Position numbers and translations under genes: made by a program. DNA of 62,499 bases, the filler included, from Dugesia japonica (taxonomy: Eukaryota), in assembly GCA_001938525.1 (NCBI GenBank). It is 5 parts of 5 records of this genome, joined end to end, with 100 filler letters (N's around TTAATTAATTAA, not from the genome) between each part and the next. Parts side by side here need not be neighbours in the genome. Positions count along the whole stretch, not along the records: positions 42,148 to 62,499 come from MQRL01630449.1; 4 more parts are not named here. One strand, 5' to 3'. Positions 11,936-62,499 of the stretch are shown here, piece by piece. The notes under the pieces are model-generated. The model ran no database searches. It saw only the letters and a list, made by a program, of their open reading frames with translations, and was not told the origin of the DNA. Position 1 is the stretch's first letter. Every line of letters begins with the position of its first letter.

Positions 11936-12035
11936 NNNNNNNNNNNNNNNNNNNNNNNNNNNNNNNNNNNNNNNNNNNNTTAATTAATTAANNNNNNNNN
12001 NNNNNNNNNNNNNNNNNNNNNNNNNNNNNNNNNNN

Positions 12036-12084
<49 letters not shown>

Positions 12085-12129
12085 TTAACAATAATAATAA
12101 TAATAATATAATTATGACTGTAAGTATTA

Positions 12130-21490: not shown

Positions 21491-23282
21491 TATTTTAAAA
21501 AATGGTGTTCAATTATTTATTGTTATAAGTTGATAAATTATTATAAATTATTCTTCTAAATTAATTCTAAAATGAAAATCTATTGCTAACGTTTTTTATA
21601 CTTTTTCAACTGGATTAATCAAATTATTGGCAGATGTATCAAGGTCATTATTTATTTTATTCCTAAACATTTAAAGAACAGTTAAAAATTTGTCGACCAA
21701 AATAGAAAATTTGACAGGAAACGTTTTGCTGAATTTGGTTCAAAGAATGTAACAAATCTATATGAATTGATTCCTATAAAAGAACCTAAAAGATTTCACT
21801 GATATCGCAAGCAACTTCTTTGACAAACTCAAAAAAAGCACGCAGATATTCAAGAAATAAAAACGATAAAACTGTTTTACAGTTGACATGTATTATCTTG
21901 GAGCAGTAATGCTAATTTCAAGCAGAAAATCGGTAAAAATGAATGATGAAAGAATTAAAGCTGTATGAATGTCTTCAAATGAAGAAATGAAATTGATTTA
22001 AATGATTTTAAGAAATATATTCAATAAAAAATTTTATAGACAAGAAGATTAAAATATATTATTAATAAATCATGTGTTTTAATCAATTTACTTTTAATCA
22101 TGATTCATTATTTTCACGCGGACAAATTATGGACAAGAAAATTACTTTTTTAAATGCTTTTAAATATTTTAGAAGAATCGGTAAAATTTTTTTAAATTAC
22201 AATTGTAAAATTTTCAATTTCTGTTAGTAATAAATAGCTTAATGAAATATCAATAATGCCAGATTTATTTAAAATGGATTTTAAAAAAACCAATTTAATT
22301 GAAAATATTTTTAGCTGATTAATCTTTTATATCAAATGAAAATATAGCTTCACATTAAATAGTTTTTCCTTAATAACATTTTAGTGCCAATTTTTATTGA
22401 ATATTATATATTTCAATTTTCTTCAAAGGTAAATACTAATAATATTAGTTTTAGATTTATATTTTTAAAAATTTGAAAAATGAATTAATTAAATATTTAT
22501 CCTATTATAAAGACAAAAGCATATTTTTCTTTCAATTTTAAAGAACAATGATTATCAATGAAGATATTCAATGTAGAATCTGCATTTCATCAAAATTTAC
22601 AAATAAATGTTTTTTACCTCCTAATAAGTTAAGTTTTCAGAATATATTAAGTAGTTGAAAATGTATTGAGCCTTTTTCCCGCTTGTGGACTAAGTGTCNC
22701 GTATCTCGCGTATTATAATTCACAATACGTTATATGGTGATTACTGATTTGTATGAAAATTTATGGTTAGATGAAAACTAAAAAGTAAAATAGAACTCGT
22801 ATCCTAAAATGCTTCCTTCCGATCGAAAAATGGGAACAAAGAAGATTGATATATTGAAGACAGAGTGAAGTAGAAACATGATCTCACGCCAAATTTGTTT
22901 TTGAAAGACGCTGAATTACATGACGGGTAAATTGATAGATGAGACAATTTCAGGTGACATTATTATAAAAGTTATTAAACAAAGAAACGTTCAAAGTAAG
23001 ATATAGCCGCTATTTTTTAATTTTTATTCTTGTACAATTTAATAAAGAAATAAAACTACCCATACATTATATTAATCAATAGTATCCAAAAATTGTTTGT
23101 TTCGATACAATTTAGTCAGCAAAAATTAAATGTATAACACAGAAACTTTTTTTATTTTTATTTAAATTCCAGATGTTTTTTACATAAGGAAATAAAGAAA
23201 AACAATTTAAAAACTAAAATTAATTTAATAACAATAACTAAAACTATTTTAAAAACTCTAATATGAGTTCCTTCATAAGCGT

Positions 23283-23546
23283 TTATGAACACGAATCGTC
23301 ACCATTTTCGGTTGCTGAATATAACTTGTTATCAAAAAAGAATAATCCATCCTCAATATCAAAGTATTTCGTTCTTAAAACATAGTTCCAATAATCATCT
23401 TGTCCGAATCGTTTTGATTTACTTTCTAATTTTGGATACATGTCATTTATTATTTTTATTGCAAGATCTAAAAATAAATTAAAACAATATTAATGAAAAC
23501 ATTATTTACCATGTTCACTTATTTCTTCTCCATTTTTTAAAAGCAT
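23283..23546 (-). CDS. Small two-exon orphan gene (73 aa) inside the Maverick arms
   Basis: Exons 23546-23510 and 23467-23283 with a 42-bp GTAAAT...TTTTAG intron. The spliced frame is open from ATG to TAA: MLLKNGEEISEHDLAIKIINDMYPKLESKSKRFGQDDYWNYVLRTKYFDIEDGLFFFDNKLYSATENGDDSCS. TATATAAA at 23587-23580. Confidence 0.6.
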
Positions 23547-25347
23547 TTTAAAATCGTATTTTAACGGAAAATAAATTACTTTATATACAAATTTAATGTA
23601 ACACTACCTGACCAATTAAATTCAACAAATCAACAGTTAGAAATGCTTTGTTTAACTTGAAGTGGCTTGTATTGCACTTATAATGTTTAACCAAGGAAAT
23701 ACCAATCAAAACATGCTAATAATCAAAAGTAACACATTTTGAATTAATAAAATCAATACATAGAAACTATACTTAGTATAAAAGCAACAACATTTAATAA
23801 ATTTTCATTATTTAAATATGCAAATTAATTTAAATATGCAAATTAGGTAGATACGTAAGCACTGGAACACTTGAATTTGTCTGGTCCGGGGGGGGGGTTC
23901 TTGTTCTTTAATATTTTGTTGTTCAATTTTTGTTCTTACAAATTTTTGCTCTTCAATTTTTTTGTGGTTCAATTTTTTGTAGTTCAGATTTTTTGTGGTT
24001 CAAATTTTTGTACTTCAAAGTTTTGGGTGAATTGGTTCAATATTTCCTCAGGGTTGGTAACTTTTAGGTAATTTAGATAAAATTGGTTGAAAATTTCCTC
24101 GATTCGGGTAATTTTTGGGTGATTTAGAAGAAATTAGTTTAAATTTTTCTCGGAGAGGTTAAATTAACAAAAAATAGGACCATCTCTGTGGATTACGGAA
24201 TGCCTACGGAATTTCATGGAATCCAAAAGAAATTCCTGAACAGATCAATACTATATATGTTTCAAGTAATTAAATACAAGTACTTTTTATTTATTTTGTT
24301 ATTTAATATTTTCATTTAGGAACCTGTGAAGATACAACGATCTACTTATAGTTCGCTGATATCCAATATTGGTTCCAAAGACATGAATACTTTGAATTTA
24401 TTATTTTAAAGAATTGAACCAACGATTACAATAAAGGATACAGTTTTCATCAATTACAATGATTCAAAAAGGACTGTTTTCGAAAAGTCCCAAAAATATA
24501 TGATCCAGGTGGAAATACAAGGATTCAAGAAAAATGGATACAACATTAACTCAATTAATATAAAAGTTAATTCTCCAATTTTAAAAATCCGAGACATTTT
24601 ATAAATGTTGTTATTATAATAAATGTTATTTATTTATTTATTTGTCTTTTAACTAATTCTATTTAAATCGTAATATTTAAAAAGATTTACTTATCAAATT
24701 AACTAAATAAAAATCTTATCTCTAAATTATAACTATAAAAATATTCATAAACTTTATTTCAAATAATGAAAAACTGTATGTCAAATAAATTACTTAAAAA
24801 CTCTATTAAATAAGAAAAACTTTACGATAAATATATAACAAAGTAACCAAATAAAATAAACAAGAATCAATTTTAATAACAAAACTTTATTTATTGAAAT
24901 GAATTAGCTTCTCAAGGAGCATATATGTACATATGTAACACTCTCAATGGAACGTAGATATAGCTCCTTATAATATCTAATACTTTTTCATAGTCTTCTT
25001 TTTTCAGGACCATTTTCTTTCTCAATAGAAATATCGCAATAATATCTGAAAATAAAAATGATAAATTATGAATATTTAAAAAATTTAATATTACCCTTTT
25101 CATTAATCAGATCCTAATGGCCATCTGATTCTGCTGATTCATTATATGTTTTTCGAACCTCCTCTATTTGAATATGATACATTTATTTTTAGAATTACCA
25201 CTAATTAAAATTAAAAACGTAATGTGTTATATATAGAATTCTCTGTTTAACACAAATCGACTAATGAAAAACAAGTAATTATCAAACAAGTAAATGCCTT
25301 GTTATAATTGCATTCATATTTCATAACTGTGTATTTATGTTGTAAAA

Positions 25348-25791
25348 TTAAACAATTAAATTATATAAATCGAAAATTATATTATCTATATATCCTTGAT
25401 AGTGTAAATTCTTTATATCAAGTATTAAAATGTTTTCTGATGAAAATACGTTTACACATACAGGATCATACTTTGTAAGTCGTATTGCGGAATAGAATTC
25501 TGGTTCAAACCAACACTTTGTTATTTTTGCTAATTTAAACAAATTAATAACTTGTCCTAAGTTGATTACAATTGTTAATGATTGCCAACAAATATGTTCA
25601 ATATTATACTGTAACTTTTCCATTTTCAACGGTCTTTTACATCCCATTATTTGAGCATTTCCTGATTTAAAGAATATCAATGTATGTTTCTTACTTTTGT
25701 CAACAAATTTAGAAGGTTTACCGATAGGAAACTTCATTTTGCCGGATACATCATGCAATACTTTACCTTTGTAATTAATATTAACTAACAT
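25348..25791 (-). CDS. Element-encoded, intronless TBP-like (TATA-binding protein fold) protein, 147 aa
   Basis: Two TBP half-repeat signatures. TLIFFKSGNAQIMGCK corresponds to TALIFSSGKMVCTGAK. QSLTIVINLGQVINLFKLAK..CWFEPEFYSAIRLTKYDPVCVNVFSSENILIL corresponds to QNMVGSCDVKFPIRLEGL..SYEPELFPGLIYRM..P.IVLLIFVSGKVVLTG. Intact ORF. Confidence 0.85.
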   Translation of the reverse strand: MLVNINYKGKVLHDVSGKMKFPIGKPSKFVDKSKKHTLIFFKSGNAQIMGCKRPLKMEKLQYNIEHICWQSLTIVINLGQVINLFKLAKITKCWFEPEFYSAIRLTKYDPVCVNVFSSENILILDIKNLHYQGYIDNIIFDLYNLIV

Positions 25792-25900
25792 TATTAATGA
25801 TTATTATTAAATGTGAGTGTATATATATGTATTTTAAAGAAATATAATTAATTGATTCATTTAAATCAAGACAAATAAACAATGCATTAAACTTAATATT

Positions 25901-26530
25901 TACAAAATAGAGTTAAAAAATGATGCTGTTTATCAAATTGTAGGTCCAAGCGGTAGTGGAAAAACATTGTTCTTATGCAAGTTACTAAAATTAAATTGAT
26001 TTAAATCAAAGTTTAACAAAATATATTGGCACAGAAATGCAGATGAAGCACACGGGCTGACACAATCAGAATTTTGCAACATAAAAATGAAAATTATATA
26101 TGGATTTGATAATAATTGGAGCAAGAGATTGAAACCGGGAGATGTTATTGTAGTAGATGATCTGTATCAGGAGGCTAATAAAGAAAAAGACTTTAATAAT
26201 TTATTCACAAAAATAAGCAGACATTGTAATGTGACTGTGATACTCATTACACATAATTTATTCCATCAAGTAGGAAGTCATAGAACACGCAATTTAAATG
26301 TACAATACTTGGTTCTATTTATAAATTCAAGCGATCAAACAGTTGTCAATTTTCTAGCAAGACAGGCATATCCTAATAATATACAATTTCTTATTGAATC
26401 ATTTCAAGATGCAACAATAAATCCTCATGGTTATATTTTTCTCGACTTTACACAACAATGTCCAGACAAANTGAGGATGAGAACCAATATTTTNAATAAT
26501 GGTAAGGTAAACGAACAAAAAGCGTATTGA
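25901..26530 (+). pseudogene. Maverick/Polinton DNA-packaging ATPase (A32/FtsK-HerA-like) with one in-frame stop
   Basis: Walker A GPSGSGKT at 25943 is in frame with ORF 26087-26530, separated by TGA at 25997. Walker B VIVVDD, then FTKISRH.N.TVILITHNLF, RT.NLN.QY.VLF, LARQ.YP, F.DAT..PHGYIFLD and R.RTNI, all typical of Maverick ATPases. Confidence 0.92.
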
Positions 26531-26659
26531 AAAAAGAAAAAGGGTGAAAAGAGGAAACAAAGTAAACAATTGAACATTTTTAACTTTTGAAATTCTATGG
26601 TAGGAAAATATCGAACGTAAACGGAAAATTGAAGTTATATAAACAAATACGGGTAAGTT

Positions 26660-26977
26660 ATATTGAAATATAAAAATTACAACGAAGCATTCCATTTTAT
26701 ACATCATTAATTAAATCTCCAAAATTGGTGAGACTGCAAATTTTGAAATCATTTCCAACGTTTGTTATGGATGATTTAATTGAAACTATTACAAATATTG
26801 TTCGCGGAAATGTAAATGTGAGCAACGCTAGAAAGGAAGTATTGAAGAAACAATAAAAAAACATTATTACCACTTGTAAATACAAAAAATAGGAAATTGA
26901 TTAGGCGATTAATACGAGATAATCAAGGAGGTAGCTTTTTAGTAGCATTACTACCAATTGCATTAGCAGCATTATAA
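26660..26977 (+). pseudogene. Maverick conserved small basic protein ending in QGGxFL-hydrophobic tail (putative protease-processed core/membrane-active protein)
   Basis: LIETITNIVRGNVNVSNARKEVLKKQ*...RKLIRRLIRDNQGGSFLVALLPIALAAL*. Matches the E...N...GN.......K..L...K...QxGGFL..LL pattern of the gene usually found after the Maverick ATPase. Has a stop and a frameshift. Confidence 0.7.
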
Positions 26978-27109
26978 TTAACTCATTTCAAATAAACAAT
27001 GTTTGCTTTTATATCAACAGTACTAATATAAACTCATTCCAAATAAAAAATTGGTGATTTAAAATCATTACCTAATTTTGATTTCAAATTTTCATCTAAT
27101 TGTTGTAAT

Positions 27110-27275
27110 GGGTAAGCTGAAGAAAATATAAGCGGACCGAGAAAATCCCGCAGGTTTTCGTGGCGTAGAAAAATTGATGAAACCAGGACATAAAACGAAA
27201 TCAAAAACCATAAATTGTTATGGGGTCAACCAGCGTACAGTTTGAATAAAAAGTATGTTGAAAAGATTTCCAACA
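27110..27275 (+). pseudogene. N-terminus of Maverick retroviral-like integrase, truncated
   Basis: D.ENPAGFRGVEKL...LWGQPAYSLNKK...KRF, compared with the recalled Maverick integrase start YYDPxxPxSFGGVxKL...WLxxQxxYTLHKP..KRF. Frameshifted; catalytic core not visible. Confidence 0.7.
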
Positions 27276-30200
27276 AGAGCGTACATTCATTGTTAAGCTT
27301 GCATCACAAATGCATTATTAGCAAAGAAGAATTCAGGTGCAANNNNNNNNNNNNNNNNNNNNNNNNNNNNNNNNNNNNNNNNNNNNNNNNNNNNNNNNNN
27401 NNNNNNNNNNNNNNNNNNNNNNNNNNNNNNNNNNNNNNNNNNNNNNNNNNNNNNNNNNNNNNNNNNNNNNNNNTTTCCTTTTATTATTAATAATAATGAA
27501 TTTAGATTCAATTATAGACGGCTTTAAAGAAATGGTTAAAATTAATTATTCAGACAAAAATCGAGAAATACTAGTACCAAGTAATCAAAGTAATAATTAC
27601 TTGCGTAAGTGTAATATTTGTTACATAAAATATAAAATACAAGATTTATTAAACAAATTTATTAACTAATATTTATTAACTAACATTTAAACATCAAATT
27701 TCATTTTAGTCATTCGATATTTTGTGATACTTTTAATATTTTGTATTTTCTAAATATTTAAATTAAATATTGGTTAATAAAAATAAAAGTATTACCACCA
27801 GTTTTGTTTTTCTTTCAATCTGACATATGTGTGGTTTTCCAAACGCAAATGATAGTGATTGTAATTGTATATCAAGCTTGATTTCGTTTATTTGTTAAGG
27901 ACATTTATATTGTAAGTCAGAATTTAAACCATTTGCAACTTTTACTTTATCTTTTCCAACTAGCTGGTTTGCTAGAGTTGGCGGATAAATATTGTACAAT
28001 TTTACCAAATTAAGCATTAGGAAACTTATGTTTTTTAATGAATCCATTTTGAAATCTAGTTTTTTGACGCTTTCATCTTTTCTTAACAATACCAAACTAT
28101 TTAAAAAGTGAATTTACATTAATGCGTGTAAACCAGTATCTAGTATATTCTCCAACCGATGTCAATAGAGTAATATATCATTATTCTAAATTTCTGCAAA
28201 TGCATCCATGAACAAATCGAGATTGTAAACATTCTTCAGAGTTTCTGCTTTGTTGGCTTTACAATCGCTTAAGAAATCTATATGATTCAAGCTTATGTAT
28301 TTGTTTATCGCATTTGCATTTAATGATGAAAGAATTTTCGGGATTTTGGATTGAGTCATTTCTTTCTTAAATTATTCTTCAATCTCTTCATTTTCACGAG
28401 AACAAATATCGATATTTTTAATCATTTCTTCTTGTTTTAGTTATAATGCATTTATTTTGGTCACATTTTAAAAATAATAATTTATTTCGAAAACCATGAA
28501 TTTATATACATTTCGGTGTGTACCCATGAATGCATGTAATAATAATAATTTGATCTGACTGGTTAATAATTAAAATAATTTTGATTGAGTGTTAAAACCT
28601 ATTTATTCAAAATATAATTTAACTAAAATCATTTATTTTTAAAATGTGATACAAAATAATTGAAAAATTAATAGATGTTAAAAACGTTATTCAAAATGAA
28701 GCAGTTGAGCCAAATTTAGAAAATTATGAAAAAGAATGGCCTACAATAGCAGATGAGGAGAAAAATACTTTGAAGCAACGAGTAATAAATTTTTTAATAA
28801 TTTAATATTTTAAAATGAATGATTTAGAAAATTTTGAATCTGATGTACAAATAATCGAAGAACTAGAGTTGACGAAAAAAATATTCAAATACAAAAAAAA
28901 GTTTGATTTAATTTAATTTTAATTATATTATTTTGTTTTAGATTTGTTCATAGAATTACTTGGACTGCTTTATCAATGCCTTGGAGATGATATACTTTAT
29001 TGTGCACCAGAATTGATTTAGTACAAAATAAAACAGATGACCGGAGTTGATATCAAAAAGGGTATGAACATATTCAACGAATATCATAAAGAAGATATTT
29101 ATTGTGAATACTGTTCTCGAAAGATGAAAGATTTGAAGAAAAAAATTAATGAGTCTAATAAAAGACAATNNNNNNNNNNNNNNNNNNNNNNNNNNNGTTT
29201 GTTATTAAATAAATGTTAATTTAAACTTTATTAGTTTATTAAAAATACTTTAAATAAAAAAAATTTCTGTGTTATACTTTTTATTTTTGCTGATTAAATT
29301 GTATCGAAACAAACAACTTTTTGACATTAGTCGTTATTGTAATGTGTATTTACTTTTTAATTATTTATAAAATAATACAAGAATCCAATTTAAAAATTAA
29401 AAAATAGTGGATGTATCTTACTTTTAAAATTTCTTTGTTCAGAAACTTTTTATGACGATTTCACCTGAGATTTTTTCATGTAATTGCGCGTCTTTCCAAA
29501 TCAAATTCAGCGCGATATCATGTTTCTACTTGACTCTGTCTTCAAAAAACTAAATTCCTTTGTTCCGATTTTTCAACCGAAAGGAAGCATTTTAAGATAC
29601 GAGATTATGATATATTCCTATCTTACTTTTTAATTTTACGTCTAACCATAAATTTTCATCTAAATCGGTAATTACCAGTTCTGACCTGGAGCTTTTTTCA
29701 ATAAAAGTAGTTTAGGCAATGTATAGGTAGTTTTTAGTTTTAGGAAGAATGGCATAATTTCGAGATGATATCTTTCAAAATGGTGGTGGTTCCGATTTTA
29801 AATCTTTAATAACTTTTTAAGGATGTACCAAACATGCATTACATTCACTTTGCGCGTCTAATGATACCAAATTTGGTTTGATCTCATAAGAATTACGGGC
29901 AATACGATCGAAAAACTTCAAAATTTTTGAAAATTCTCTATCCAATGTTATTCATGACCTTGAATGACCTACGAAAATAAATATTTTTTCGATGACCTTA
30001 AAAAAATCGAAAAAAAATCGAACGGAAATTTTTTTTATCTTACCACCACTCCGGGTGGGTCACTGAGGCTGGTTGAATGCTGACATGTACCACTATTTAT
30101 GGGATTTAGAAATTCACCCAATATAAGTTAAAATAAAAATAATTTCTTTTAATCAATAGGAATAATATTAGTAATATTTCCATTCCATTTTGTATCATAT

Positions 30201-43659: not shown

Positions 43660-44240
43660 ATAATAAATACAAAGTCTTTGGCAAATCCTGGAGAACCACG
43701 CACATCAAAGTCGAAAAAAGATATTCATGGTCACAAGGTCCTTTTGTCTATTTGGTGGAGATACAAGGAGTTCTGTATTATGAACTATTAAACCCGTTTC
43801 AGACTATCGCTATGGAATTTTACACTCAACAATTGAGGCAGTTGTTTGAGAAAGAGCGATATTACGCGATAAAGCAAAACATGGCAATTCTTCTGTACGA
43901 CTTTACCAGGCCTTATGTGACATTAAGAACCAGAGAAACATTAATGGGAATTTCTACCACACAAGGTATATTCTCCTTCAGATTTTCACTTATTTCGTTC
44001 TATGCCACACAATCTTTCTGATACGTAATACAATATTTAAGAAGTGTAGAAATTTATTAATAACTTTGTTCAATATAGAGCAAAGACTTTTTTCATAGGG
44101 ATATCCATCTTTTGACTGAATGATGGCAAAAAAGTAATAAATATTAGTGGTAAATATTTTGATTAAATTTACTGTTATTTGTAATAATATTAATTTAAAA
44201 AAACGCTTAAAACGATGGAAACTTTTGCATACCCTTAATA
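43660..44240 (+). mobile_element. mariner transposase 3' fragment with right TIR
   Basis: HGHKVLLSIWW, GVLYYELL and LLYDFTRPYV. Ends aaacgatggaaacttttgcatacccttaata. Confidence 0.8.
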
Positions 44241-44636: not shown

Positions 44637-46731
44637 CTTAAGATAAAGAAATTATTAAGTGTAAAAAATTATTCATTTTAAAGTTATTTAAAATACTGGA
44701 TATTTTTTTCAACACCTTAGTAAAAATTACAAATATAAAATTGTAATAGTTAAAATTTTAAATATTTAAATAGTTTAAATATTTTGAATAGACACTTTTC
44801 AAAAGAACTACTAATATCAAAATTCCTTTTTAAAAAAAGCTATTCTAAGAGTATTTTACACCAAAATTTTAAACTAAATCGACTTCATAATATGTGGCAT
44901 TATATAATCATATGATTCAATATAGCTTAAAATAATGATCTATTTCTTTGTAAATTTTCATCACACAATATGGCTTTATCATCACATAATCTACCATAAA
45001 TTATTTATATCATTCCAAAGTTCATAAATTCCTGTTTTTCGTGAAATTTCCTCAAAGTACAGTTTTTGTGTTACAACGATTACTTTTTAAATTAATTATA
45101 TTCGTTATAATTAACTAGGACAATTCTCAACAAATTAAAATATATAAAAATACAATTGAGGGTTTTGGCACATAGTCAAAACTTATGTTCGCAGTTTCTT
45201 CAAGCTATAGGATAATCTAGATTTTAAAACAAAAATTCCTAAAATATGGTCATTGAAACCCTGGTTCCGTGAAAATATTTCATAGTTACATGGTACGAGT
45301 TAATTTAATTTAATACGAGTAAGATGATGAAAAATAATTTCATGAAACAAGATATCGTGAAATAAATATTTATATTAATTTAATGCTGTGCAGCTCTAAA
45401 CTTTCTTGCAAAAATTAATTTTTTATTTTATATATTATCTAACTTATACATGGATGCTTGAAAATTTTTATTCGATAATTTTATATAATAAAAGTATCTT
45501 AATTAAAGGACCTATAAATAAGATATTTTTATTTGAAAATTAGAAAAAAAATTCAACTTTGAATTCTCTGCAACATTAAAAAGATGCAGATTATGGAGCT
45601 GATATTTGATTGTGTGTGAATTCAAAATGTTTTTATTTACCGAATAGTATTATTTAGTTAAACTTTAACATTCACTATTTCGCAATATTTCCTGAATCAA
45701 AATAATTATAAATTATTGTAAACAAATTTTTATGAATGTACTTTCTTTTTAAATGTAAATATTATCCATCTTGAGTATATTATATTATATTATATTATAA
45801 GAACATGTAATTGAATATCTTAAGACTTGAGTTCTTTTTTAAAATATTATTTTATTAAACAATTAATGAGAGTTAATTTGTTGAAATGTAGGATCTAATA
45901 GGAGGAATGGAATTACAGAAACAGTCTAGATTCCATCTGCTGAGAGAGACTAAATTTGAGAACAATGAAATGTATCTTTGTAATATAGAAGCAAAGTATG
46001 GACGCAGTACAACGGATGAAGAGAGAGTACAGAGAGCAATAAAAATATTGATTAACAAGTCAAACGAGAATTTGGAGAAAGTTATACTGATTTATAAAGG
46101 AATATTCATGGCAGAACAACAAATAATCACAAATGGAGAACCAATAAATACGAAACCATGGAGACAACCAATGCATTTAGAGAATAATATCGATGAAGCC
46201 ATTAAGAATTTGTTTAACAATGGCATTATTAAGAAGTGCAATTCGCAATGGAACACTCCGTTAATATGTATTTGGAAAAAAGAAAGGAAAGACGTTAGAT
46301 TATGTCTAGATTTTAAAAAACTGAATGTAATCGCAGAAAGACAGGAATTTCCGATACCTAATATAGAGGAAATACTTGACAATTTGGGTGGTGCAAGATA
46401 TTTTAGTACTATTGATTTGGGTAATGCATATTATCAAGTTCCGCTACATAAAGATTCACAAGAGAAAACAGCATTTTCGTATTGTTTCACAAGAATGCCT
46501 TTTAGTATAGCTGCAGCACCTGGAACNTTTCAAGAATTAATGACAAAAGTATTAGGAAGATTGAGAGGAACTATAGTATACACGGATGATATATTGATAT
46601 TTTCAGAAAATATAGAGCATCACCATAGAGTTTTAGACAAATTTTTTGAAAGAATTCAAGAATCAGGATTGAGAATTAATCTAGAAAAATGTCAGTTATT
46701 GCGAAAAGAAGTCAAATTTTTAAGGCATGTC

Positions 46732-47335
46732 AGTATATAGATAGTGGCGCACGAGAACAGCACATATTAAGTAACCCCCACCATTGCCGTGACGTAATGA
46801 AATTTAATCCTAATGCACTTAGTTGTGAATTTAAAAATTGCATCATTAATTGCATCATTAGGTAACTATTAGGTTACTGTTTTCGTATTTCCCTGTGTAT
46901 TTAGTTGGGAAAATTTTTTGTACACCATATATGTCATGAGATTAATTTCATCTGTGAAATTTTATGTAATAGGATTATCTGTTTTCGTATATCTCTGTGT
47001 ATTTAGTTGGGGAAATCTTTTAGGCATTTAGTTGGGAATTTATTTGGTGAGGTCGAATGAGGTCAATTTTCGATTGGTTTTATGTTGTTTTTGTCAAAAG
47101 TTTAATCGGTGAGGTCGAATACGGTCGATTTTTGGTTGGTTTAGGTGAATTTGGTTGACAATTTGCTCGGTGAGGTCAAATCTGGGTAAACTTGGTCGGT
47201 TTTAGGTTAATTTGGTCAAATTTTTTCTAGGGAATGGTTAATTTAGGTTTTTTTAAGATTAAATTTCATAACGTCAAGACGGGGGTTAGGGGTTACTGAA
47301 TGAGTGCTGTTCTTGTGCACCACTATCTACCTACT
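46732..47335. mobile_element. 604-bp Maverick-type MITE
   Basis: Ends AGTATATAGATAGTGGCGCACGAGAACAGCAC / GTGCTGTTCTTGTGCACCACTATCTACCTACT. 6-bp TSD CATGTC / CATATC. Interior homologous to the left arm of 15497-18913. Confidence 0.9.
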
Positions 47336-49644
47336 CATATCATAGACAATAATGGAGTTCGAACTGATCCAACAAAAATTGAAGCGATAAAAAATTTCGG
47401 AAGACCTAAATGTGTGAAGAACTTGAGAAGCTTTTTGGGAATATTCAATTACTATAGACGGTTTATCAATAGTTACTCAAAGAAAGCTAGAAGCTTGGAA
47501 GAGTTATGTGGAAGTAATAATAAAAAATTTTAGTGGTCTGAAAATTGTGATAAAGCTTTCAATGAGATGAAAGAGGCATTAACGAAAGCACTGATATTGA
47601 GCTTTCCATATGTCAAAAAGACGTTTGTACTAGATACAGATGCGAGTTTTGATGCCAGTGTTAGAAAATTAGCGCACCAGATCACCCCCTCCCCCTTGTG
47701 TGTAAAAAGTGATCTATGATTTTCCTAGGAAAAAAGTCGGCGGCACACATTTGTGTGGTATTATGTAAGTGATCTTTAATTTTTGTAATGTAAATAGGCG
47801 AGGAACAAGATTTATGTGCGATTTCATAACTTTTGCTCGTAATTTTTGAGTGCCATGTTCGAACTTTTCAAAATTTTTGGATTTTTTTAAATTTCAAATT
47901 TTGCGAAAATTTTTTATTTGAAAATTATTTAAATTTATATAGGGAATTTTCCCTTGTTTAAATATTTCGATTTAATTTATAATAAACATTAATATTTTAA
48001 ATCTTATAAATTCTTTATAAATAGTAAATTATAATTATAAACACAAATTATAAATTAAAATTATAAATAACAAACATAACAAACACAACATATAACACAT
48101 ACATAATTTTAAATACAAAATATTAATAATAATTACAAATACAAAATAATATATAAAAATTTCAATTTAGTATTAAATAAGAATTTTACTCGAATAATTT
48201 TCACTCTATAATTTTTTCTAGGATAATTTTAACTGGGAAATTTTTAGTTAAATTTTAGAGTTTATTTTTCCAGTGGTATTTAATTTTCTAAATATGATTT
48301 TAGTAGTTTATCTTAGAATTTTAAAATAGTATTTTTTAATAGGTTTAGTAGTTAATTTTTAAGTAGTTGATTTTATCAGTTAATTTTTAATAGGTTTATT
48401 TTTAGCAACTGATTTTAAAATTTAATTTTCTAGTAGTTTATTTTAGAATTTTAAGATAGTAATTTTTTTTCACTCTAATTTTTAACAGGTTTTTGTCAGA
48501 ATGCTCTTCTTGTGCATAAAAAACCATTTTCACCTATCGGTGGCAAACTTTATAATATTTTCACGTTTCGGAATAAACATATCATAAGGTAGGCTAAATC
48601 TAAAATTTATCATCTCCTTCTTCCTGTATAATATTTGATGTTTCACCTTCTTCCGGTTCAAAATAGATGATTTCTTCAACGCCATCTTCAATTACAATTA
48701 TTTCGACAGGTTCATCCTTGATTGTTATTTCTTCAACGTTATTTTCAATAACTCAGATTCAAGTATGTGTGTATTTTTTAAAATTTAATTTCAAATTAAT
48801 TTAAAATATTACAGACATATTACGTTGAGGTAATTTAAATTAAATTAATTATTTTTGATAAGAAAACATGTCAAAATAAATAGAATAATAGCAAAATAAC
48901 AGCGTTTTCAAAATAATTTTTAAAAGTATATATTTTGTAAAAATAAAAAGTGAATTTATTTTTAAAAATATGTACTTATTGTATAAAATAAATGACTTTT
49001 ATTGAAATCTTTGTTATTTATTAAAACTAATAAAAATAAAAAAGAACATAATACAAAATAACAACATTTATTTATTTATAAAATTGTACATTTTTGAAGT
49101 TTGGTTGAATCAACGAAATCTCAAAAATGTAGAATTTTATAAATAAATAAATGTTGTTATTTTGTAATATGTTCTTTTTTATGTTTGATATCAGCAATCC
49201 GTTGCCTTTTCTCTTTTCTTATATGATTGCATTGCGTCAGATAGTTATAATATTCGAAATCAAAACTATCGTGATTTTTTGTATCCTAAAGGTAACAACA
49301 GTAATATATAAAATAAAAAATATATAAATTTACCATGCTTGATTGTTCAGTTTGAGTATACTTTTCATTAGAAGAATTCATATTTGCTTATTAGAAAAAG
49401 ATTTAAACTGAAAGCGCGGGTATTTAATTTAATATTAAATACTGCAACGTAATTCTAATTTTATTGATAAATATTTGTAATTATTTTATTTAATATTTGG
49501 TGAGAAATTACAAAACATTGAAGAAATATGTGGTTGGAAAATACGAAACAATCAAGGTTTTCTTTTGGTATTGTATTACTACTTTATTAATTTTATTTAC
49601 TTTAAGAAAATTTCCATAGTACGGTTACATACCACGGTTATGAA

Positions 49645-49983
49645 ATGGCATTTCTCAAAAAACATAAATCATTTCTTCTATCAGATGCAGTCGAGTTGGA
49701 AAAAGTTAAATTTGGTTACCACATATCCAAATTGACAGATAAAAATATACAAATCTTGAATGATGAATTGAGTCAAATTAATGCGGAAATGGAAACAGAA
49801 ATTTCAATGAAAAGATCATTTTACATTCGAGCAACAGATTTTAATTGGTATGATACAACTGGAAATATACATATTCCTACACAAGTTGGTACGGTTAAAA
49901 TAAAGCTTTTACTTCAAGGATACAAAATAAAATATGGAATTAGATTTCCCTTATGGAGATTGTTAGACGTGTTTGATTGGTAA
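49645..49983 (+). CDS. Orphan ORF (112 aa) inside the 6.7-kb element, possibly the last exon of a spliced gene
   Basis: Open frame of protein-like composition in AT-rich DNA. Possible 50-bp intron at about 49557-49606 and AATAAA downstream. No family recognised. Confidence 0.45.
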   Translation: MAFLKKHKSFLLSDAVELEKVKFGYHISKLTDKNIQILNDELSQINAEMETEISMKRSFYIRATDFNWYDTTGNIHIPTQVGTVKIKLLLQGYKIKYGIRFPLWRLLDVFDW

Positions 49984-50113
49984 TTATTTTTAGAACATGT
50001 TGTTAATGTTGTTGATGTTTTACAAATAAAGTATTTTTTATATAATTGTTTTTATTTAACATATTTTTATAATAAAGAAAAAATAAATCCAAAATATTTA
50101 TTAAACAATTAAT

Positions 50114-50347
50114 TTAACAATCATTTGAACAATAATCGCTGTCATCATCATCATCAGCATCACCCTTAACGTTTATCTTTTCATCATCATCATCATCTGT
50201 AACGTTTTTATCATTCACAATGTTTTCTTCAAAATTCATATCATTTTCCTCTTCTTCAGTTGATGCAAGTTTCAGTACTTCGTCAAGTATTAGAGTTGCA
50301 TATTCTTTAATAATGAATAAAATTTGTTTTTCCTCTGCAATATTCAT
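50114..50347 (-). CDS. Small acidic orphan ORF, head-to-head with the second TBP-like gene
   Basis: 77 aa with a helical N-half and a D/E-rich C-half. Confidence 0.45.
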   Translation of the reverse strand: MNIAEEKQILFIIKEYATLILDEVLKLASTEEEENDMNFEENIVNDKNVTDDDDDEKINVKGDADDDDDSDYCSNDC

Positions 50348-50512
50348 GTTTTTAAAGCATTTTCAATCAGTATNNNNNNNNNNNNNNNNNNNNNNNNNNN
50401 NNNNNNNNNNNNNNNNNNNNNNNTTTTTAAAGCATTTTCAATCAGTATATTGATTTTGTTTATGGTCGAAAAAGTATAAATAGACCGAAATAAGTCAGTT
50501 TTTTTTGTAATT

Positions 50513-50973
50513 ATGTTGTTTTCAAATAAAAATTATAAAGGCTATACAACTGAAAATTTGAATAGTCTTTAATTTAGTTATNAACCAAAATAATGTGTAT
50601 TAAAGTATTCCGATTTTATATATTTATATTTTATATTTCNAAATGGAAAATGTAGAATAATGGGTTGTAAAAAACCATTAGAAAACAAAGAACTTCCATT
50701 CAATATGTTACTACTACTATTGTCAAAGAAATACAATCGGTGACGGTGACCGCTTCCTTACAGTTGTCAATAAATTTACAGAAATTGGCTGAAACATCAA
50801 ATTTCCGGTTCATATAACCGGAAATATGTCCAGGTCTTCGATTAATACTATTCGATCCTTTATGTGTTAATGTTTTTCATTCTGGTAAAGTAGTAATAAC
50901 CGGTTTAAAAACTTTAGATTTTTATGACGATGTAAATATTATTAAAAGTTATGTATTAGATTTAAAAAATTAA
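50513..50973 (+). pseudogene. Second element-borne TBP-like gene, decayed (missing from the ORF track)
   Basis: MLFSNKNYKGY...FIFxNGKCRIMGCKKPLE.../..EIQSVTVTASLQLSINLQKLAETSNFRFI*PEICPGLRLILFDPLCVNVFHSGKVVITGLK..LDLKN*. Collinear with 25348-25791 (NYKG, IMGCK.PL, QS.T, INL.KLA, PE, DP.CVNVF). Three stops and one frameshift. TATAAATA at 50475-50482. Confidence 0.88.
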
Positions 50974-52069
50974 ATGTATTAACCTTTTTTGTTATGTCTT
51001 GTTTTATAATTTATAGAATTTATATGTAAATAATTAAGTCATGTAATACATATAAATGCTATATGCAAGTCATATCCAATGTAGATGCAATTTATAGATC
51101 AATATTATTGATTAGGCAAACTTAATATAATTAATTTATAATTTTACAATAATGATGCAAATGGAAGATTTTGAAAATAAAATGGTGGCAGAGGAAAGAG
51201 AAAATATCTTAAAATTATCCAACCAACATCAGCAATAACAACATGATCGAGGAACACAAACAGCCACTGAGTATCCATTCCACCTCAACTCAATTCTCGC
51301 CAATAATATGGATAAATATCTATTTAATAAATAAATAAATATTTAATTTCGGAAAAAATTATTTATGTGATTCCAGAACATAAATACAATCGAAAGAAAT
51401 TCGAGAGATTAAGCAAATGGGAAATATTAGAATACAGATATTTATTAGAAAAGGATATTGAAAGAGGAATTCGTGCTTTAAATCAAGTATGAAAAATAAT
51501 GATAAAAAAATTTTAATATTATTATTTTTACAGGTTCAATTGTTAGAAATGTTGTTACAATTAAGAAAAAACGTTGAGAACCTTAATTTCCATATCGAAT
51601 GGGTACCACATCAAACGTATAAAAAATAGTCGAAGAGTTGGTCATCGTGCTCAAACTTAGAATGCCGACCACACTAATCAGTACAATAGAAAATATGCTG
51701 AAGAAATGTAATGGAGAAAAACCGTACGATCCGCGGGAAACAGTTCAACATAAAAAAATATTTAATCTTCAAATAGTATCGAATGCATTACAATCGGTGA
51801 AAGGATGCGATTTACATCGATATTGAGAAATTGGAAATTTAAATAATAATATTAATAATAATAAACAACTTTAATATTATTTTAGTTTGCCGTTTCAATT
51901 CTCTAACAATTGAAGACTATAGTGAATATCAACAATCACGTTTTTTAATATAAATAAATATTGAAAAATATTTTATTATCTTTTGAAAATTATAATAATT
52001 AAGTTTATTAAAAATAGTTTAATAAAAAATTTTTTTTAAAATAATACAAATTTAAGTGAGTTATCAAAC

Positions 52070-53100
52070 ACCATGTTAAAATAATATTCAAAAAAAATTA
52101 TCAAAATTAAAAAAAAATGTCATATTTCAGAAAATTTTATTTAGATTTCTACTAAATAAAACATTTATAGCCCATTACAAAAATGAGTTTTCAAAAAAGT
52201 ATATTAAAAGTCACTTAAAAAGATGGGAGGACAAACAGATAGGAACTTTGGAACGTTATATCGTCACTATTATTCAAAGGAAAATTTTTAAAAAATATCA
52301 TTAAACTTTACATATTTTTCTTAATTTTTTTAGATTTTAAAGTTTTCAAAAATCTAAAAAAAAATTTTATTTTTTCAGAAAAAATTCAAAAAAATTATCA
52401 AAAATAATTTTACATTTCAAATTTTTTTTATATTTCTACTAAGAAAAATATCTATATCCCATTACAAAAATAAGTTTTCAAAAAAGTATAGTAAAAGTCA
52501 CTTAAAAATATGGGAGGAGTCGAGGACAGAAACTTTGGAACGTTAAATCCTCACTATTATTCAAAATAAAATTTTTTTAAAAATATTCTAACACTCAACA
52601 TATTTTTCTAAATTTTTTCATATTTTAAAAAATCTAAAAAAAATTAATTTTTTCGGAAAAATTTCAAAAAAAATATTTAAAATTTTTTAATTGTTATAAC
52701 AATCAATGGTATTTGTGTGAACACTTGTCGTACAGACAAGTAAATAAATATCCTAACATTAAATCTCATAGTTGTCGAGAAAAATCAATAAACCGTAACT
52801 TTTAACGTTGCCATGGAAAGCGAACTATTTTTTATATTCACGCCGAGAAAAAAATCTATATCCCACTACAAAAATAATTTTTCAAAAAAGTTTAGTAGAA
52901 GTCACTCAAAACTATAGGAGGAGTCGAGGAAAGCAGCTTTAGAACCTTATACCGTCACCACTATTCACACTAAAAAAAATTTTAGAAATAACATTAAACT
53001 CTACATATTTTTTCATATTTTAAAATTTTCAAAAATCCAAAAAAACTATTTTATTTTTTCAGAAAAAATTCAAAAAAAAATATAAAAAATTTCTTGGTTG
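52070..53100 (+). repeat. Three diverged tandem copies of a 290-400 bp unit inside the 6.7-kb element
   Basis: ccca(t/c)tacaaaaat...ttttcaaaaaagt...aagtcact...ggagga recurs at about 52171, 52458 and 52862. Confidence 0.85.
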
Positions 53101-54813
53101 TCATGGCAACAGTTTCTATAGATACGGCTATCTCAGATTCACGTTACGCAATAAGTTTCCGCGCACCAGTGACCTTAGTTATCGCGCAAAATCAATAAAA
53201 TCATTTTCGCGCCCCATCATTTTCGGTTCGCATGACAACGGTTGTGATAACGGTTCTGACAACGTTTTCATGATAACGCTTTTCATTTTTAAGTTATCGC
53301 GAGCCCCTCTAAAAACATCTTGTCCTCGATTCCTCCCTTCCTACTACTGTAGTTGATTTTTACGTAACATAGAAACTAAAAATTATTCATGTTTTATCAC
53401 ATTGTGTAATAGGTCACATGTTGTGTGTATGATTATGTAATATTGATAATTTTATTTAACACTAAGATTCATCTGGTAAACAACTTAATTTACTTAGATT
53501 AACAACTTATGCTGTCATTACCCTCAATACAATCGATATATTTGTATTGTTCAATACAGTTAACATACACTTGATTATTTAAATCAACGCAACAGTATTT
53601 ATCTGATTATTATGAAATACATGAAAATTCATAATAATTCAATAGAAGTATATTAGAATTCATAAAGTTTTACTAGATGTTGAAATAATTTCTCAAATAT
53701 TTACAAGAAAACCTACTAGAAGTATATAAAATTTCTTGAAAATTTACTTGAAGTTGATAAAGTTTTCAAAATCCTATGTAAAATAATGGGAAAATAATTC
53801 AAATATTTACTAGAAGTACATATAAATTAACAAAAAATTACTAGAAGTATATAAAAATTATCAATAAATTACGAAAAGTATATGAACAATAAATATAAGT
53901 ATACACTTAGTCTACATAATTCATTCAATCATTACATAAAAATATGTTATCTCAATACACTATTTTCATTATATATACATAATCCACTTAGTCTATTCAA
54001 TACATTTCATTAGCCAACATAATACTAAATACAGTGAATCAACTCACTCAAAACATTTAATTTCATTTACAACAGAAAATATGATAAACAATATACGCAA
54101 TATTAAACCCAATGATTCAAATACATACCATTTGAACCAATTATAATAAAAAATTCGAACAAGGCACACAAAAAGTACGAGCAAAAGTTATGTAATCGCA
54201 CATAAATTTTGTTCGTTGCCTATTTACATTACAAAAATCATTACATTACATTACAGCACACAAATGTGTGCCGCCGACTTTTTACATTGGATCATAGATC
54301 ACGTTTTACACATAAAGGGGGAGAGGGTGATCCAGTGCCTTCATATTCTACCACTGATGCCATAGGAGCAGTTCTATCGCAAATAGATGAAAGAGGTTTA
54401 CAACAAGTCATTGCAAATGGGTCACAAGCAATGTCAGCTCATGAAAAAGGATATTGTATAACAAGAAAGGAATTATTGTCTATCATTATTATCTACATCT
54501 TTCTTCATAATTTTCTATAATTCATTTGGCAATTAATAATTATTTGCTTCTTGGTTTTTATTTATTTGTTGATATTATTACAACAATGGTGAAATATCGC
54601 AACTATTTGCATTTTCCCGAACTTCTTATTTTTTTTATCCATTTATTATAAATTATGTACTTCTCCCAGTCACTTGAACAATAATTTCTCTTTTTCATCA
54701 AGTTTTGGTAAAATAGCGTTTTTATAGGTTCTTGTTGTTATGTGAAGAATGTTAATTTTCCACTATGAAAATAAAAGTGAAGAAAAAATTATTTAAAGAA
54801 AATGGTTGTTAAT

Positions 54814-55565: not shown

Positions 55566-55879
55566 CATTAAGTACTTGTCTTTTCTATATAATTTTTTAT
55601 CTATAATGTTTGACGATTTTAGGTTTACACATTCTTACTCACCGTAACATTCTCTATCGAATAGATACTTTAATTCATTTAAAATTAATTTTTTTTGATT
55701 GAAGCTTTTATTTTAAATGAATTTTTATAAACGATCAATGGTTACATCCAACAATTATTTTCGCAATAATTGCAATTGCAAAAAAGATATTTTAATGTTT
55801 AAATTTGAATTAGTTTTTTATTTTTCGGAAAAATTAAATTTATCCGGGAGGGCAGCTATATATCTTTGTTGGAAGCATT

Positions 55880-56625
55880 TTTCCCGAGACGATATTTTAA
55901 CTTTGCATAGTCACTTTTCTTCTTGAGTAAAATAATAGCAAATTTGAGTCGAAGGCAGTTCTATACACACAGAGGTCTGAGCGCTAAAATCTGAGTTTTG
56001 AGATTTTTTCACCACAAAACCTCATTTATTTTAATGAGTATTAACTTTGGCGATTTTAGGTTAACATATTTGGAATTAGCGAAAAAGTCTCTATCGAATA
56101 GAGACTCTCTTGACCTATTTTGAGAAGAAAAAAGTTTTTCGAATAATTCTGTGCAATATACTTGGAAAATCAAAAATGATCGCCGTAAGTCGAAATATGT
56201 AAAATTATCTATATATTATTTTTGTAAATTTTGGATGCTTCAGATTCCTATAAAACATTGATTTAAAAAATTTTAAATGTTCACCTGAATTCCTATAAAA
56301 ATATTTTCCCAACTAAATAGCTTGAAAAAATATTGCTGCTTAAAAAGCCTGAAAAAGTTTTACCAACTAAAAAGCCTCAAATTTGAAAATAATTCGGCAA
56401 ACTTTTCAAAATACGAGCAAAATTTATGTAATGCACAAAAATTTAATTGTCAGAGCCTATTAAAAAATACGAGTAAAGGTTATGTAATACACACAAATTT
56501 ACTTGTCGCCTAAATTCTATACCACTATGTAATAATTACGTAATACACACAAATGTGCGTCGCCGCCTATTTACATTGGAAAAATTATGTAATCATTTTT
56601 TACAAAAGGCTACTATCTATCTACT
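55880..56625. mobile_element. Right-end fragment of a Maverick-type element
   Basis: Ends ctactatctatctact at 56625. Subterminal cacaaatgtgcgtcgccg / gcctatttacatt shared with the TIR of 47657-54355. 55915-56105 recurs inverted at 62315-62499. Confidence 0.75.
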
Positions 56626-58173: not shown

Positions 58174-58332
58174 ATCTAAACATTGCCGGAGACTCAGTAA
58201 AAATATGTATGAAAGTGATCAAAAAATGATGAATATTTTTGTGAATGTTTTACAAATTTTCAAAGTAATATAATATTATGTCGTATAGTAGTAATTAAAA
58301 TATTATAAATTATATATAAATGAAAATGTTAC

Positions 58333-62084: not shown

Positions 62085-62499
62085 CCNAGTTTTTTAAATT
62101 TTCAAATGTTTGGATGATTTAATAAGGAAATTCTTCGAGAATGTTAATTTTGTGGATGATTTTAGGCAAATATATTCTCGGGTTGGTCTGTTTGCTTGAA
62201 GCTTTTGAAAGAAATTCGTGGGAAATAGACGAATTTGTTTAAATAATTCAAATAGTTAAAAATTTTTATGGGAATCCAGGTAAACATCTTCTCAAAATAG
62301 GATAAAAAACTATCTATTCGATAGAGAATCTTTTGCTGATTCCAAATATATTAACCTAAAATCGCCAAAATAATACTTGATTAAATAAATGAAGTATTGT
62401 GGTTAAAAATTTCAAAATTCAGAGTGTAGTGCTCAGATCTTTGTGCGCAGATAACAGCTATCGACTCAAATTTGGTGTTATTTTACTCAGGAGGAAAAA
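62085..62499. mobile_element. Subterminal fragment of the Maverick-type family, inverted relative to 55880-56625; continues beyond the window
   Basis: 62315-62499 is the reverse complement of 55915-56105. ttatgggaatc motifs as in the core of 15497-18913. Confidence 0.65.

Follow-up and report, generated by a model that had tools for sequence, protein, structure and literature searches.

How did an insertion with Maverick-type ends and a TBP-like gene, and with none of the genes that would move it, come to lie in the genome of Dugesia japonica? We analyzed a window of 62,499 nucleotides, joined from five parts of assembly GCA_001938525.1, in which this insertion occupies positions 47657..54355 and a first element with a TBP-like gene occupies 22735..29677. 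The most likely reading is a Maverick/Polinton whose central block has been lost; the broken TBP-like gene inside it is probably a passenger, and intact relatives are predicted to use their own copies as late-promoter factors.

Ends, host site and affiliation of the insertion

The insertion opens with AGT at 47657 and closes with ACT at 54355, and is flanked by a 6-bp target-site duplication, GATGCC, at 47651..47656 on the left and 54356..54361 on the right. Its left terminal inverted repeat (47657..47868, plus strand, 212 bp) is 83.6% identical to the right one (54149..54355, minus strand, 207 bp), with 179 matches, 26 mismatches and 9 gap columns in the arm-to-arm alignment (~84% alike; 13% mismatch), and both lengths fall in the 100-1500-bp range of Maverick terminal repeats. 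This alignment confirmed the element delimited by the first-pass annotation, namely 6.7 kb with a GATGCC duplication, AGT...ACT ends and ~210-bp TIRs, except for its length. A 50-N assembly gap at 50374..50423 has the same 25 bases at either side, which makes it a likely overlap artefact and puts the true length at ~6.6 kb; genes hidden inside the gap were rejected because its flanks are duplicated. The left flank (45892..47656, plus strand) is a remnant of a host Gypsy RT/RNase H (RVT_1, E 8.5e-28) that resumes beyond 54361, the frames on the two sides being consecutive portions of one Gypsy RT-RNase H. The empty site is present in reads: 27 RNA reads, from other Gypsy copies, pass from left-flank-like letters directly into 54356.

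Within the insertion, neither protein-primed PolB nor integrase was matched by tblastn, relative-built profiles or Pfam, in agreement with the earlier statement that it has no visible transposition genes, and the ATPase, the protease and the clusters c7, c9 and c19 were likewise missing by tblastn and relative-built profiles. The TIRs, the 6-bp duplication and the AG...CT ends are common to the insertion and Mavericks/Polintons (adintoviruses), as outlined in PMC8097293, PMC6431247, 10.1101/2023.08.22.554363 and PMC8502044, and its accessory genes recur in contigs with pPolB, rve integrase, A32 ATPase and adenain. It differs in being 6.6 kb long, degraded and devoid of core genes, compared to 13-25 kb for Mavericks/Polintons, and in starting with a single AGT, compared to (AGT)2 in the vertebrate elements described. 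Since Maverick-type ends and two Maverick-family genes are present but core genes are not, the central block was likely lost; since pPolB and integrase are absent, the insertion is filed as a Maverick derivative and not as an autonomous member. As 96% of vertebrate Maverick loci are given as eroded in PMC8097293, decay itself is ordinary.

Alternatively, the ends might be those of a different cut-and-paste family, one that also makes 6-bp duplications and that picked up a piece of a Maverick bearing the SSB and TBP genes. Such a capture would fit the absence of any Maverick core gene inside the insertion, the absence of a Maverick locus with these arms among the loci searched, and an arm-like fragment without Maverick genes at 56462-56604; however, those loci are contig fragments mostly without their ends, and AGT...ACT, the 6-bp duplication and the ~210-bp arms fit the Maverick pattern as set out in PMC8097293 and 10.1101/2023.08.22.554363. 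Nor was a non-Maverick transposase or a remnant of one detected between the arms with Pfam and relative-built profiles, a point that the first-pass annotation had singled out for checking. Capture is thus quite unlikely, and we retain the reading of a Maverick that lost its central block.

The SSB-like and TBP-like genes

The first of the two Maverick-family genes (49606..49983, plus strand) is a conserved accessory gene that is open and encodes 112 aa from Met 49645, with a possible upstream exon. Besides the TBP-like gene, the contents had been described as small orphan ORFs, a hairpin and tandem repeats; the hairpin and the repeats are present, and orphan status was rejected for ORF 49606-49980, which has homologues in 12 of the 72 TBP-like loci (tblastn). 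The 112-aa protein is predicted to be an OB-fold ssDNA-binding protein of the T7 gp2.5/Enc34 type. Its model (pLDDT 88.9) aligned to 1je5 with a Z of 8.1 and an rmsd of 2.9 over 106 residues; the top four Z values in the structure search were 8.1, 8.1, 7.9 and 7.0, the next was 5.3, and the Foldseek E was only 0.009. The modeled OB fold is common to T7 gp2.5, Enc34 and ASFV CP312R, compared to which the protein is smaller, lacks the acidic C-terminal tail and shows 5-13% identity.

The second gene (50513..50973, plus strand) is a broken Maverick mini-TBP gene with three stops (50570, 50591 and 50815), one frame change (between 50714 and 50724) and two Ns (50582 and 50640), which bears out the decay reported earlier. 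Its identity to the first copy in the window is 35% over 137 aa, and the two do differ at most other residues, as had been noted. By contrast, the motifs taken to be private to these two copies vary little or not at all across the 15 rows of the family alignment, and their private status was rejected. RNA reads cover the gene 7-12 deep in one run and ~0 in the other; as they run in both directions and come mostly from diverged copies, they give no evidence on its expression.

The first copy, an open gene at 25351-25800 (minus strand), sits in an element of ~7 kb whose ~440-bp arms are unrelated to those of the insertion. That element also holds an SSB-gene remnant (24173-24601), an A32-type ATPase (25877-26530), and, as far as an N gap at 27343, remnants of core genes and of the integrase; no clean end or target site was found for it.

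Among the 72 related TBP-selected loci, which are contig fragments mostly without their ends, 35 carry Maverick core genes (ATPase, rve integrase, pPolB or adenain), as do 19 of the 21 that are at least 4 kb long. The TBP-like gene is present in three of six loci chosen by the ATPase alone. The gene order of the insertion, SSB-like then TBP-like on one strand, recurs in L004, L006 and L022, which also have the ATPase. The dN/dS values were 0.11-0.34 in six of ten pairs, three pairs were saturated, and one near-identical pair gave 1.25. Scans of IMG/VR with the TBP alignment, a plant TBP, the ATPase alignment and a 22-nt arm core found nothing, and a scan of prokaryote genomes with an archaeal TBP was empty.

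Cellular TBPs (rows without TRF2/TBPL1) lie on one side of a 100* branch both in the LG tree, whose search was not at the optimum and from which L052 was dropped for too few filled columns, and in the mixture-model tree, whose careful search was incomplete. The TBP-like family accordingly lies apart from cellular TBP; the first-pass annotation had wanted the comparison with host TBP. The monophyly of the two window copies, proposed for testing in the same place, fared less well: in both trees the first copy falls in a starred clade that leaves out the second, so that they are sisters in neither, although by an AU test their union remains acceptable (p=0.36).

It is conceivable that each copy is a separately captured and decayed host TBP paralogue, as the long cellular branch attaches beside the 47657..54355 copy in the LG tree, a single quick tree in which this placement is weak (support 83). 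However, the best matches of the 50513-50973 protein are Maverick-locus proteins (47%, E 2e-36) and its identity to cellular TBP is ~25%; it shares the H2 deletion of the family and the neighbouring gene; and the mixture-model tree sets the cellular rows apart at 100*. Separate captures are largely refuted by the identities, the H2 loss and the 100* split, and are highly improbable. The core genes in the related loci, the separation from cellular TBP and the dN/dS values instead support the view that the TBP-like gene has long been kept under selection in a Maverick lineage that has diversified, rather than being captured once from a host, in line with the earlier proposal of an old and stable element component. 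The insertion, a decayed remnant, shows that one genome has been colonised by several divergent Maverick subfamilies that carry the TBP-like gene.

The model built from the first copy with its relatives has a predicted TBP fold (pLDDT 85.7), and the top 39 Foldseek rows listed for it were all TBP (TM ~0.7), pointing to the two-lobed fold of PF00352 in the family. Taken alone, the protein of the first copy scored 22.4 bits against PF00352 (cut-off 22.9), compared to 60-67 bits for the locus proteins, and phmmer gave it no match in the PDB, whereas the profile search did match.

Residues were counted over 160 family proteins taken without genomic context. The stirrup glutamates C.L3.2 and C.L3.4 are kept in 138/160 (plus 9 Asp) and 154/160, respectively; this numbering was mapped by the EPE motif, at what we take to be its position. 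The L5.1 phenylalanines, one in each lobe, are retained in 135/160 and 154/160, the first-lobe intercalating Phe is replaced by Pro in 123/160, and the second Asn is Ser or Thr in 155/160. The mid-H2 columns of the family alignment are mostly gaps, and helix H2 is absent from lobe 1 of the model. The family thereby departs from the canonical eukaryotic TBP, with its lobe-1 H2 and basic patch, four intercalating Phe and two Asn. In the modeled protein, the retention of the TFIIB-contact glutamates and the absence of the regulatory helix suggest a late-gene switch.

Promoter boxes and a predicted late-gene switch

The box YATAAACR stands on the sense strand within 100 nt upstream of the ATPase in 21/23, core in 13/17, integrase in 10/13, c9 in 8/8, c19 in 5/6, c7 in 8/14 and protease in 3/6 cases, counts that are non-independent events because the loci are related. 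It peaks 30-49 nt ahead of the start; the antisense count is 0, and shuffles expect at most 0.5. The genes c9 and c19 are called capsid genes from position and size only, Pfam naming neither. Before the TBP-like gene itself the box occurs in 0/59 cases, and a canonical TATA in 22/59 (6.2 when shuffled). In the four ATPase-selected loci without a close TBP-like gene, three of which are short contigs of a single MAG, no box precedes the ATPase. In the insertion, a canonical TATA-like box (50474..50481, plus strand) lies ~39 nt before the TBP-like start and is followed by TCAGT, which we take to be initiator-like. A YATAAACR box (50457..50464, minus strand) lies ~42 nt before an acidic ORF once the gap artefact is discounted, and the two such boxes in the 6.7 kb are at background level.

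We consider a two-stage scheme reasonably probable. Host TBP would transcribe the mini-TBP gene early through its ordinary TATA box; the mini-TBP would then bind YATAAACR 30-50 nt ahead of the ATPase, core, integrase and probable capsid genes, and would recruit host TFIIB and RNA polymerase II by means of the glutamates retained in its stirrup. Without helix H2 in the first lobe, it would be out of reach of host regulators. In the 47657..54355 copy, the targets on which the mini-TBP would act are gone and its gene is decayed.

The box could also be read by a host factor, either a forkhead protein or host TBP recognising a TATA variant, with the mini-TBP, for example, sequestering TFIIB and dampening host transcription. 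The forkhead consensus is RYAAAYA, which ATAAACA fits; a kept stirrup would suit a decoy as well; and L077 has a TBP-like gene, a distant one, and no YATAAACR box. Yet gene-strand enrichment is seen for ATAAACA (62 vs 15) and not for the other forkhead-type variants GTAAACA (10 vs 6) and GTAAATA (16 vs 21), the box is strand-specific, with its peak 30-49 nt upstream of the start, and the DNA-contact phenylalanines are kept in the family protein. A host reader is therefore rather unlikely, and the comparisons below take the mini-TBP as the reader.

Giant virus and poxvirus TBP-like proteins have the two-lobed fold, the L5.1 Phe and the loss of first-lobe regulatory signatures in common with the predicted Maverick protein (Ravarani et al. 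2020, PMC7221094); Polinton or Maverick is absent from the main text of that paper. There the C.L3.2 acid is reported in ~40%, and the proteins are mostly accompanied by a viral TFIIB, whereas the Maverick family, of ~150 aa, keeps the acid in the far larger share counted above and gave no Pfam match to TFIIB in 67 ORFs of 12 partial loci and no PDB profile match for three neighbour families, searches that a divergent TFIIB could escape. KSHV ORF24, a beta/gammaherpesvirus TBP mimic, is described as guiding host Pol II to late genes that have a variant TATA and would be a functional analogue (PMC12529657). ORF24 is large and multidomain, belongs to a viral complex and is predicted not to bind TFIIB, whereas the Maverick protein consists of the TBP core alone, retains the TFIIB stirrup and is likened to ORF24 by fold only. 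A TBP-like gene has been noted in the MELD viruses, midsize viruses with an adintovirus-like polymerase: it appears as a label in the part of Starrett et al. 2021 that deals with non-animal datasets (PMC8502044, Fig. 5 legend) and in two legends of bioRxiv 10.1101/697771, and the text consulted gives no family, structure or promoter analysis. An early-to-late TBP/box switch in Mavericks was not found worked out in the literature searched. If true, the timing of Maverick particle-gene expression would be testable with one protein and one oligonucleotide, and the mini-TBP would stand as a pared-down counterpart of the herpesvirus TBP mimic and as a naturally occurring TBP whose sequence specificity has changed.

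Order of events and remaining contents

It is very probable that a Maverick integrase inserted this copy and that a single ~9-kb core deletion turned a ~16-kb Maverick into the 6.6-kb unit; in L004, the ATPase-to-polymerase core is a contiguous ~9 kb (3486-12568). As no contig spans the insertion and none of the 72 loci has its arms, both the parent element and the point of deletion are putative.

We lean slightly towards deletion of the core after insertion. The alternative, at somewhat under an even chance, has the same steps in another order and corresponds to the earlier reading of mobilisation in trans: loss of the core would have come first, and a helper would then have supplied both the protein-primed polymerase that copied the unit from its arms and the integrase that inserted it, the unit being one of a non-autonomous Maverick family. 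A single deletion in the inserted copy would account for the anatomy equally well. In favour of the alternative, the insertion retains both arms and its duplication in full, the first element has a similar length of ~7 kb, and no single sharp junction stands out among the best-supported loose ends (best of >2,400). In addition, the summed depth of related contigs is at least 264 in every 146-bp bin of the right half, compared to 26-35 in a unique flank bin; full-length relatives, however, would produce right-arm coverage equally. Against such a family, the matching pieces inside the insertion are shorter than ~330 nt and cover the right half, no second target site with the same deleted structure was seen in these short contigs, none of which spans the insertion, and the first element has unrelated arms and a different deletion. 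Non-autonomous Polintons are reportedly listed in Kapitonov and Jurka 2006 or Repbase; among the papers listed by our literature search, none describes such families. The insertion is a candidate for helper-dependent Maverick units. Only tentatively do we extend this to a widespread Maverick lineage whose ~150-aa TBP, without the host-regulator surface, may run an early-to-late switch through YATAAACR and host TFIIB, and which may have spawned helper-dependent core-less units spreading as defective genomes.

The rest of the insertion consists of small ORFs, for which Pfam was blank or weak, and repeats. Small acidic ORF pieces (48533..48752, minus strand), an acidic 82-aa ORF with 33% D+E and its first Met at 50347 (50117..50362, minus strand), and one or more decayed small ORFs (51139..51823, plus strand) belong to no family that we found. 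ESM Atlas gave no usable match for 51331-51489 or the SSB-like ORF, and the candidate 47-nt GT-AG intron at 51487-51533 had no supporting RNA joint among those listed. Three subterminal tandem units of ~290-400 bp, 78-81% alike, occupy 52087..53104, and 31-bp tandem repeats occupy 53707..53883. A 155-bp internal palindrome (49032..49186, 92%) lies between divergent ORFs; the Maverick loci L019, L054 and L057 likewise have internal palindromes.

A decayed, probably Maverick-derived element within a Gypsy frame

In its host, an AT-rich eukaryote that is probably an invertebrate animal, the element extends from 47657 (AGT start) to 54355 (ACT end) and is flanked on both sides by GATGCC. Its arms of 212 and 207 bp match at 179 aligned positions and mismatch at 26, and the alignment has 9 gap columns. 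It splits a Gypsy RT-RNase H frame that is consecutive across both flanks, the left of which corresponds to RVT_1 of Pfam (E 8.5e-28). In 27 reads of an oligo-dT run, letters resembling the left flank run straight into 54356, as expected of other Gypsy copies whose site is still empty. The ends with their GATGCC copies, the interrupted Gypsy frame and the empty-site reads thus establish the insertion as genuine, and bear out the bounds, the target-site duplication and the AGT...ACT ends described in the first-pass annotation. A 50-N gap inside the element has the same 25 bases on either side and likely hides nothing; at 4715-5231, a 234-bp duplicate on either side of an N gap is likely another assembly overlap artefact. 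The same Gypsy RT holds a second inverted-repeat insertion of ~600 bp (46732-47335), which is 72% related to a large foldback element at 15497-18913 that has long inverted arms (74-95%) and is built of 50-60-bp units.

As far as the available text of PMC8097293, 10.1101/2023.08.22.554363 and PMC6431247 goes, the ends fit the criteria for Mavericks; however, the core genes of an autonomous Maverick are absent from the element, so that it is a derivative rather than an autonomous member. When profiles were built for 120 of the 211 multi-locus clusters of ORFs, taking the largest, they found in the element only the TBP-like gene and the gene at 49606-49980. The locus is best read as a Maverick that has decayed and has no core. 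In one metagenome relative (L004), ATPase through polymerase form one 9-kb core block, and a single deletion from a ~16-kb Maverick, either before or after insertion, would therefore yield the element. Among the openly accessible papers listed, nothing on point was found for non-autonomous Polintons or for a Polinton SSB.

Over the right half of the element, each DNA run gave more than 6,400 contigs at ≥82%. Summed depth, which is not a copy number, was at least 264 in every interior bin and peaked in the TBP-like bin at 70,736 and 142,556; the unique flank bin had 26 and 35. This depth shows many diverged relatives, above all of the TBP-like gene and of the core of the arms. Among the pieces aligned to the right half, no contig spans the element, and the matches listed contain no second target site. 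An isolated fragment at 56462-56604 is 72-76% like the core of the arms, and the reads hold related arm families sharing only that core. Within the element, a small ORF stays in frame across a candidate GT-AG intron of 47 nt (51487-51533). Inspection by eye suggests comparable short introns in the first element and, in the metagenome loci, between clusters 8 and 2; vertebrate Maverick core genes are reported to be intronless.

The TBP-like family and its Maverick neighbours

The TBP-like gene of the element (second copy, 50513-50973) is broken by stops at 50570, 50591 and 50815, has two Ns, and changes frame between 50714 and 50724; read-derived relatives differ from it by small indels inside the gene. 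The first copy (25351-25800, minus strand) is open and encodes 150 aa. It lies in the first element (22735-29677), a Maverick remnant with ~440-bp arms that are 76% alike, for which a clean end and target site were not found. There, the TBP-like gene runs opposite to the SSB and ATPase genes, and the integrase is cut off at a 131-N gap, beyond which neither a polymerase nor a capsid-cluster remnant was found. The two elements derive from different subfamilies, because their arms are unrelated and their gene layouts differ.

Close relatives of the first copy made up 14 of 21 candidates, and a profile built from these matched 2,031 representatives at E ≤0.001 and 319 at ≤1e-10, including some cellular TBPs. 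The predicted structure (pLDDT 85.7, confident) matches TBP structures. With its breaks read as X, the second copy shares 47% identity with the protein of metagenome locus L006, 35% with the first copy and about 25% with cellular TBP aligned at full length. The earlier reading of the element is partly supported: the TBP-like gene belongs to a diversified, Maverick-linked family, but the motifs taken to be private to the two copies are invariant or nearly so in a 15-row family alignment. Among ten pairs of related TBP-like genes, dN/dS was 0.11-0.34 in six; three others were saturated, and a near-identical pair gave 1.25.

In two trees with only 4-5 cellular rows and TRF2 absent, the cellular TBPs form one side of a branch with support 100. 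In both, the first copy groups with P0002-P0009 members in a clade of support 98-99 that does not include the second. In the LG quick tree, which is not optimal, the cellular branch attaches beside the second copy (support 83); the careful search was incomplete. The two copies are not sisters in either tree, although their union was not rejected by the AU test (p=0.36).

A total of 72 loci encoding a TBP-like relative were obtained from 379 metagenome pattern matches. ATPase, integrase, pPolB or protease is present in 35 of them and in 19 of the 21 that reach at least 4 kb, with the whole Maverick core in L004 and L019. When loci were chosen by ATPase instead, three of six carried the TBP-like gene, including one (L073) with the full core. 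These ATPase-selected loci (L073-L078) are Maverick-like contigs within bacterial MAG records, probably through binning contamination.

For the ORF at 49606-49980, tblastn gave homologues in 12 of the 72 loci and clustering in 20, mostly adjoining the TBP-like gene directly upstream, and the first element keeps a remnant of one. When the predicted structure of this ORF (pLDDT 88.9) was compared with 48,161 chains, the four best matches were T7 gp2.5, DUF2815, Enc34 SSB and ASFV CP312R, with middling Z-scores of 8.1-7.0 and the next at 5.3. Accessory genes of TBP-carrying Mavericks (L019:225-722, L013:3975-4316, L047:1665-2168, L055:13315-13914 and L026:1897-3327) comprise a ubiquitin-conjugating enzyme, a dual-specificity phosphatase, RING fingers and an LRR protein. 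Two neighbour families of the TBP-like gene (L027:3336-3857 and L030:1759-2349), which received no name from Pfam, resemble by eye a DEDD-type exonuclease and a second SSB-like protein.

A mini-TBP and a candidate late box

What is of biological interest is the mini-TBP of the family, with its candidate late box, rather than the decayed locus. Protein features were counted in 160 family proteins, most of unknown genomic context. The stirrup glutamates are kept in 138 (plus nine with Asp) and 154 proteins, and the L5.1 phenylalanines in 135 and 154, whereas the intercalating Phe of the first lobe is replaced by Pro in 123. In the 160-row alignment, gaps fill most of the middle part of helix H2 in the first lobe, and the predicted structure lacks a helix there. 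According to the available text of PMC7221094, the stirrup glutamates contact TFIIB, and the H2 basic patch binds TFIIA, TAF1, Mot1 and NC2. The same text puts conservation of the first glutamate at about 40% in viral TBPs, most of which have their own TFIIB, compared to 138/160 in the present family. A search of 67 ORFs from 12 partial loci detected no TFIIB.

The YATAAACR box was counted on the sense strand within 100 nt upstream of the first Met, over distinct upstream sequences from loci related to one another; ORFs were left out if their first 45 residues held no Met or if they lay too close to the end of a contig. It precedes ATPase in 21/23 cases, core in 13/17, integrase in 10/13, PLA2 in 7/8 and protease in 3/6, and, among the clusters of neighbour ORFs, c9 in 8/8, c19 in 5/6 (both probable capsid by position and size), cluster 3 in 9/13 and c7 in 8/14. 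Upstream of these classes, antisense boxes number zero, and shuffles expect ≤0.5. The box is rare before c13, c14, c22 and c24, and was not found before c8 (0/8), c10 (0/8), c17 (0/5) or the TBP-like gene itself (0/59), which is preceded by a canonical TATA in 22 of 59 cases versus 6.2 in shuffles. Forkhead-type variants showed no enrichment. The candidate late box of the mini-TBP family thus holds up in the strand and shuffle tests.

Among the six ATPase-selected loci, both with a close TBP-like gene carry boxes; no box precedes ATPase in three loci without a detected TBP gene or in L077, where the TBP-like gene is a distant one and the YATAAACR pattern is lacking. In the first element, ATAAACA lies ahead of the ATPase, core and integrase remnants. 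The second element has one box about 42 nt upstream of an acidic ORF, and its two boxes in 6.7 kb represent the background level.

By comparison with TBP-DNA structures, the downstream half of the box would be contacted by the first lobe. The missing first-lobe Phe and the non-canonical C coincide in that half, which is suggestive only. As far as its available text shows, KSHV ORF24 (PMC12529657) is a functional analogue of the Maverick mini-TBP. For TBP, TATA-binding, TFIID or TFIIB in Polintons/Mavericks, the only direct mention found in the accessible texts is a legend label in Starrett et al. (PMC8502044, 10.1101/697771); a term search did not find TBP in 10.1101/2023.08.22.554363, PMC8097293, 10.64898/2026.10.13.758929 or 10.1101/2025.02.07.637071.

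Other features of the window

The right arm region of the element contains X-box-like RFX motifs at 53097, 53226 and 53264, the only three matches in the window. A dispersed palindromic MITE-like family occupies 12132-12334, 20054-20207, 39788-39929 and 55687-55796, and another palindrome lies at 19538-19737. Other remnants are a second Gypsy (protease and RT, 35207-37021), a mariner-type transposase (43653-44018) and a weak hAT match (8964-9191). An inverted pair (55915-56128 and 62287-62498, 82%) surrounds a 309-aa ORF at 58306-59232, which has no Pfam match and resembles a semaphorin/plexin Sema exon.
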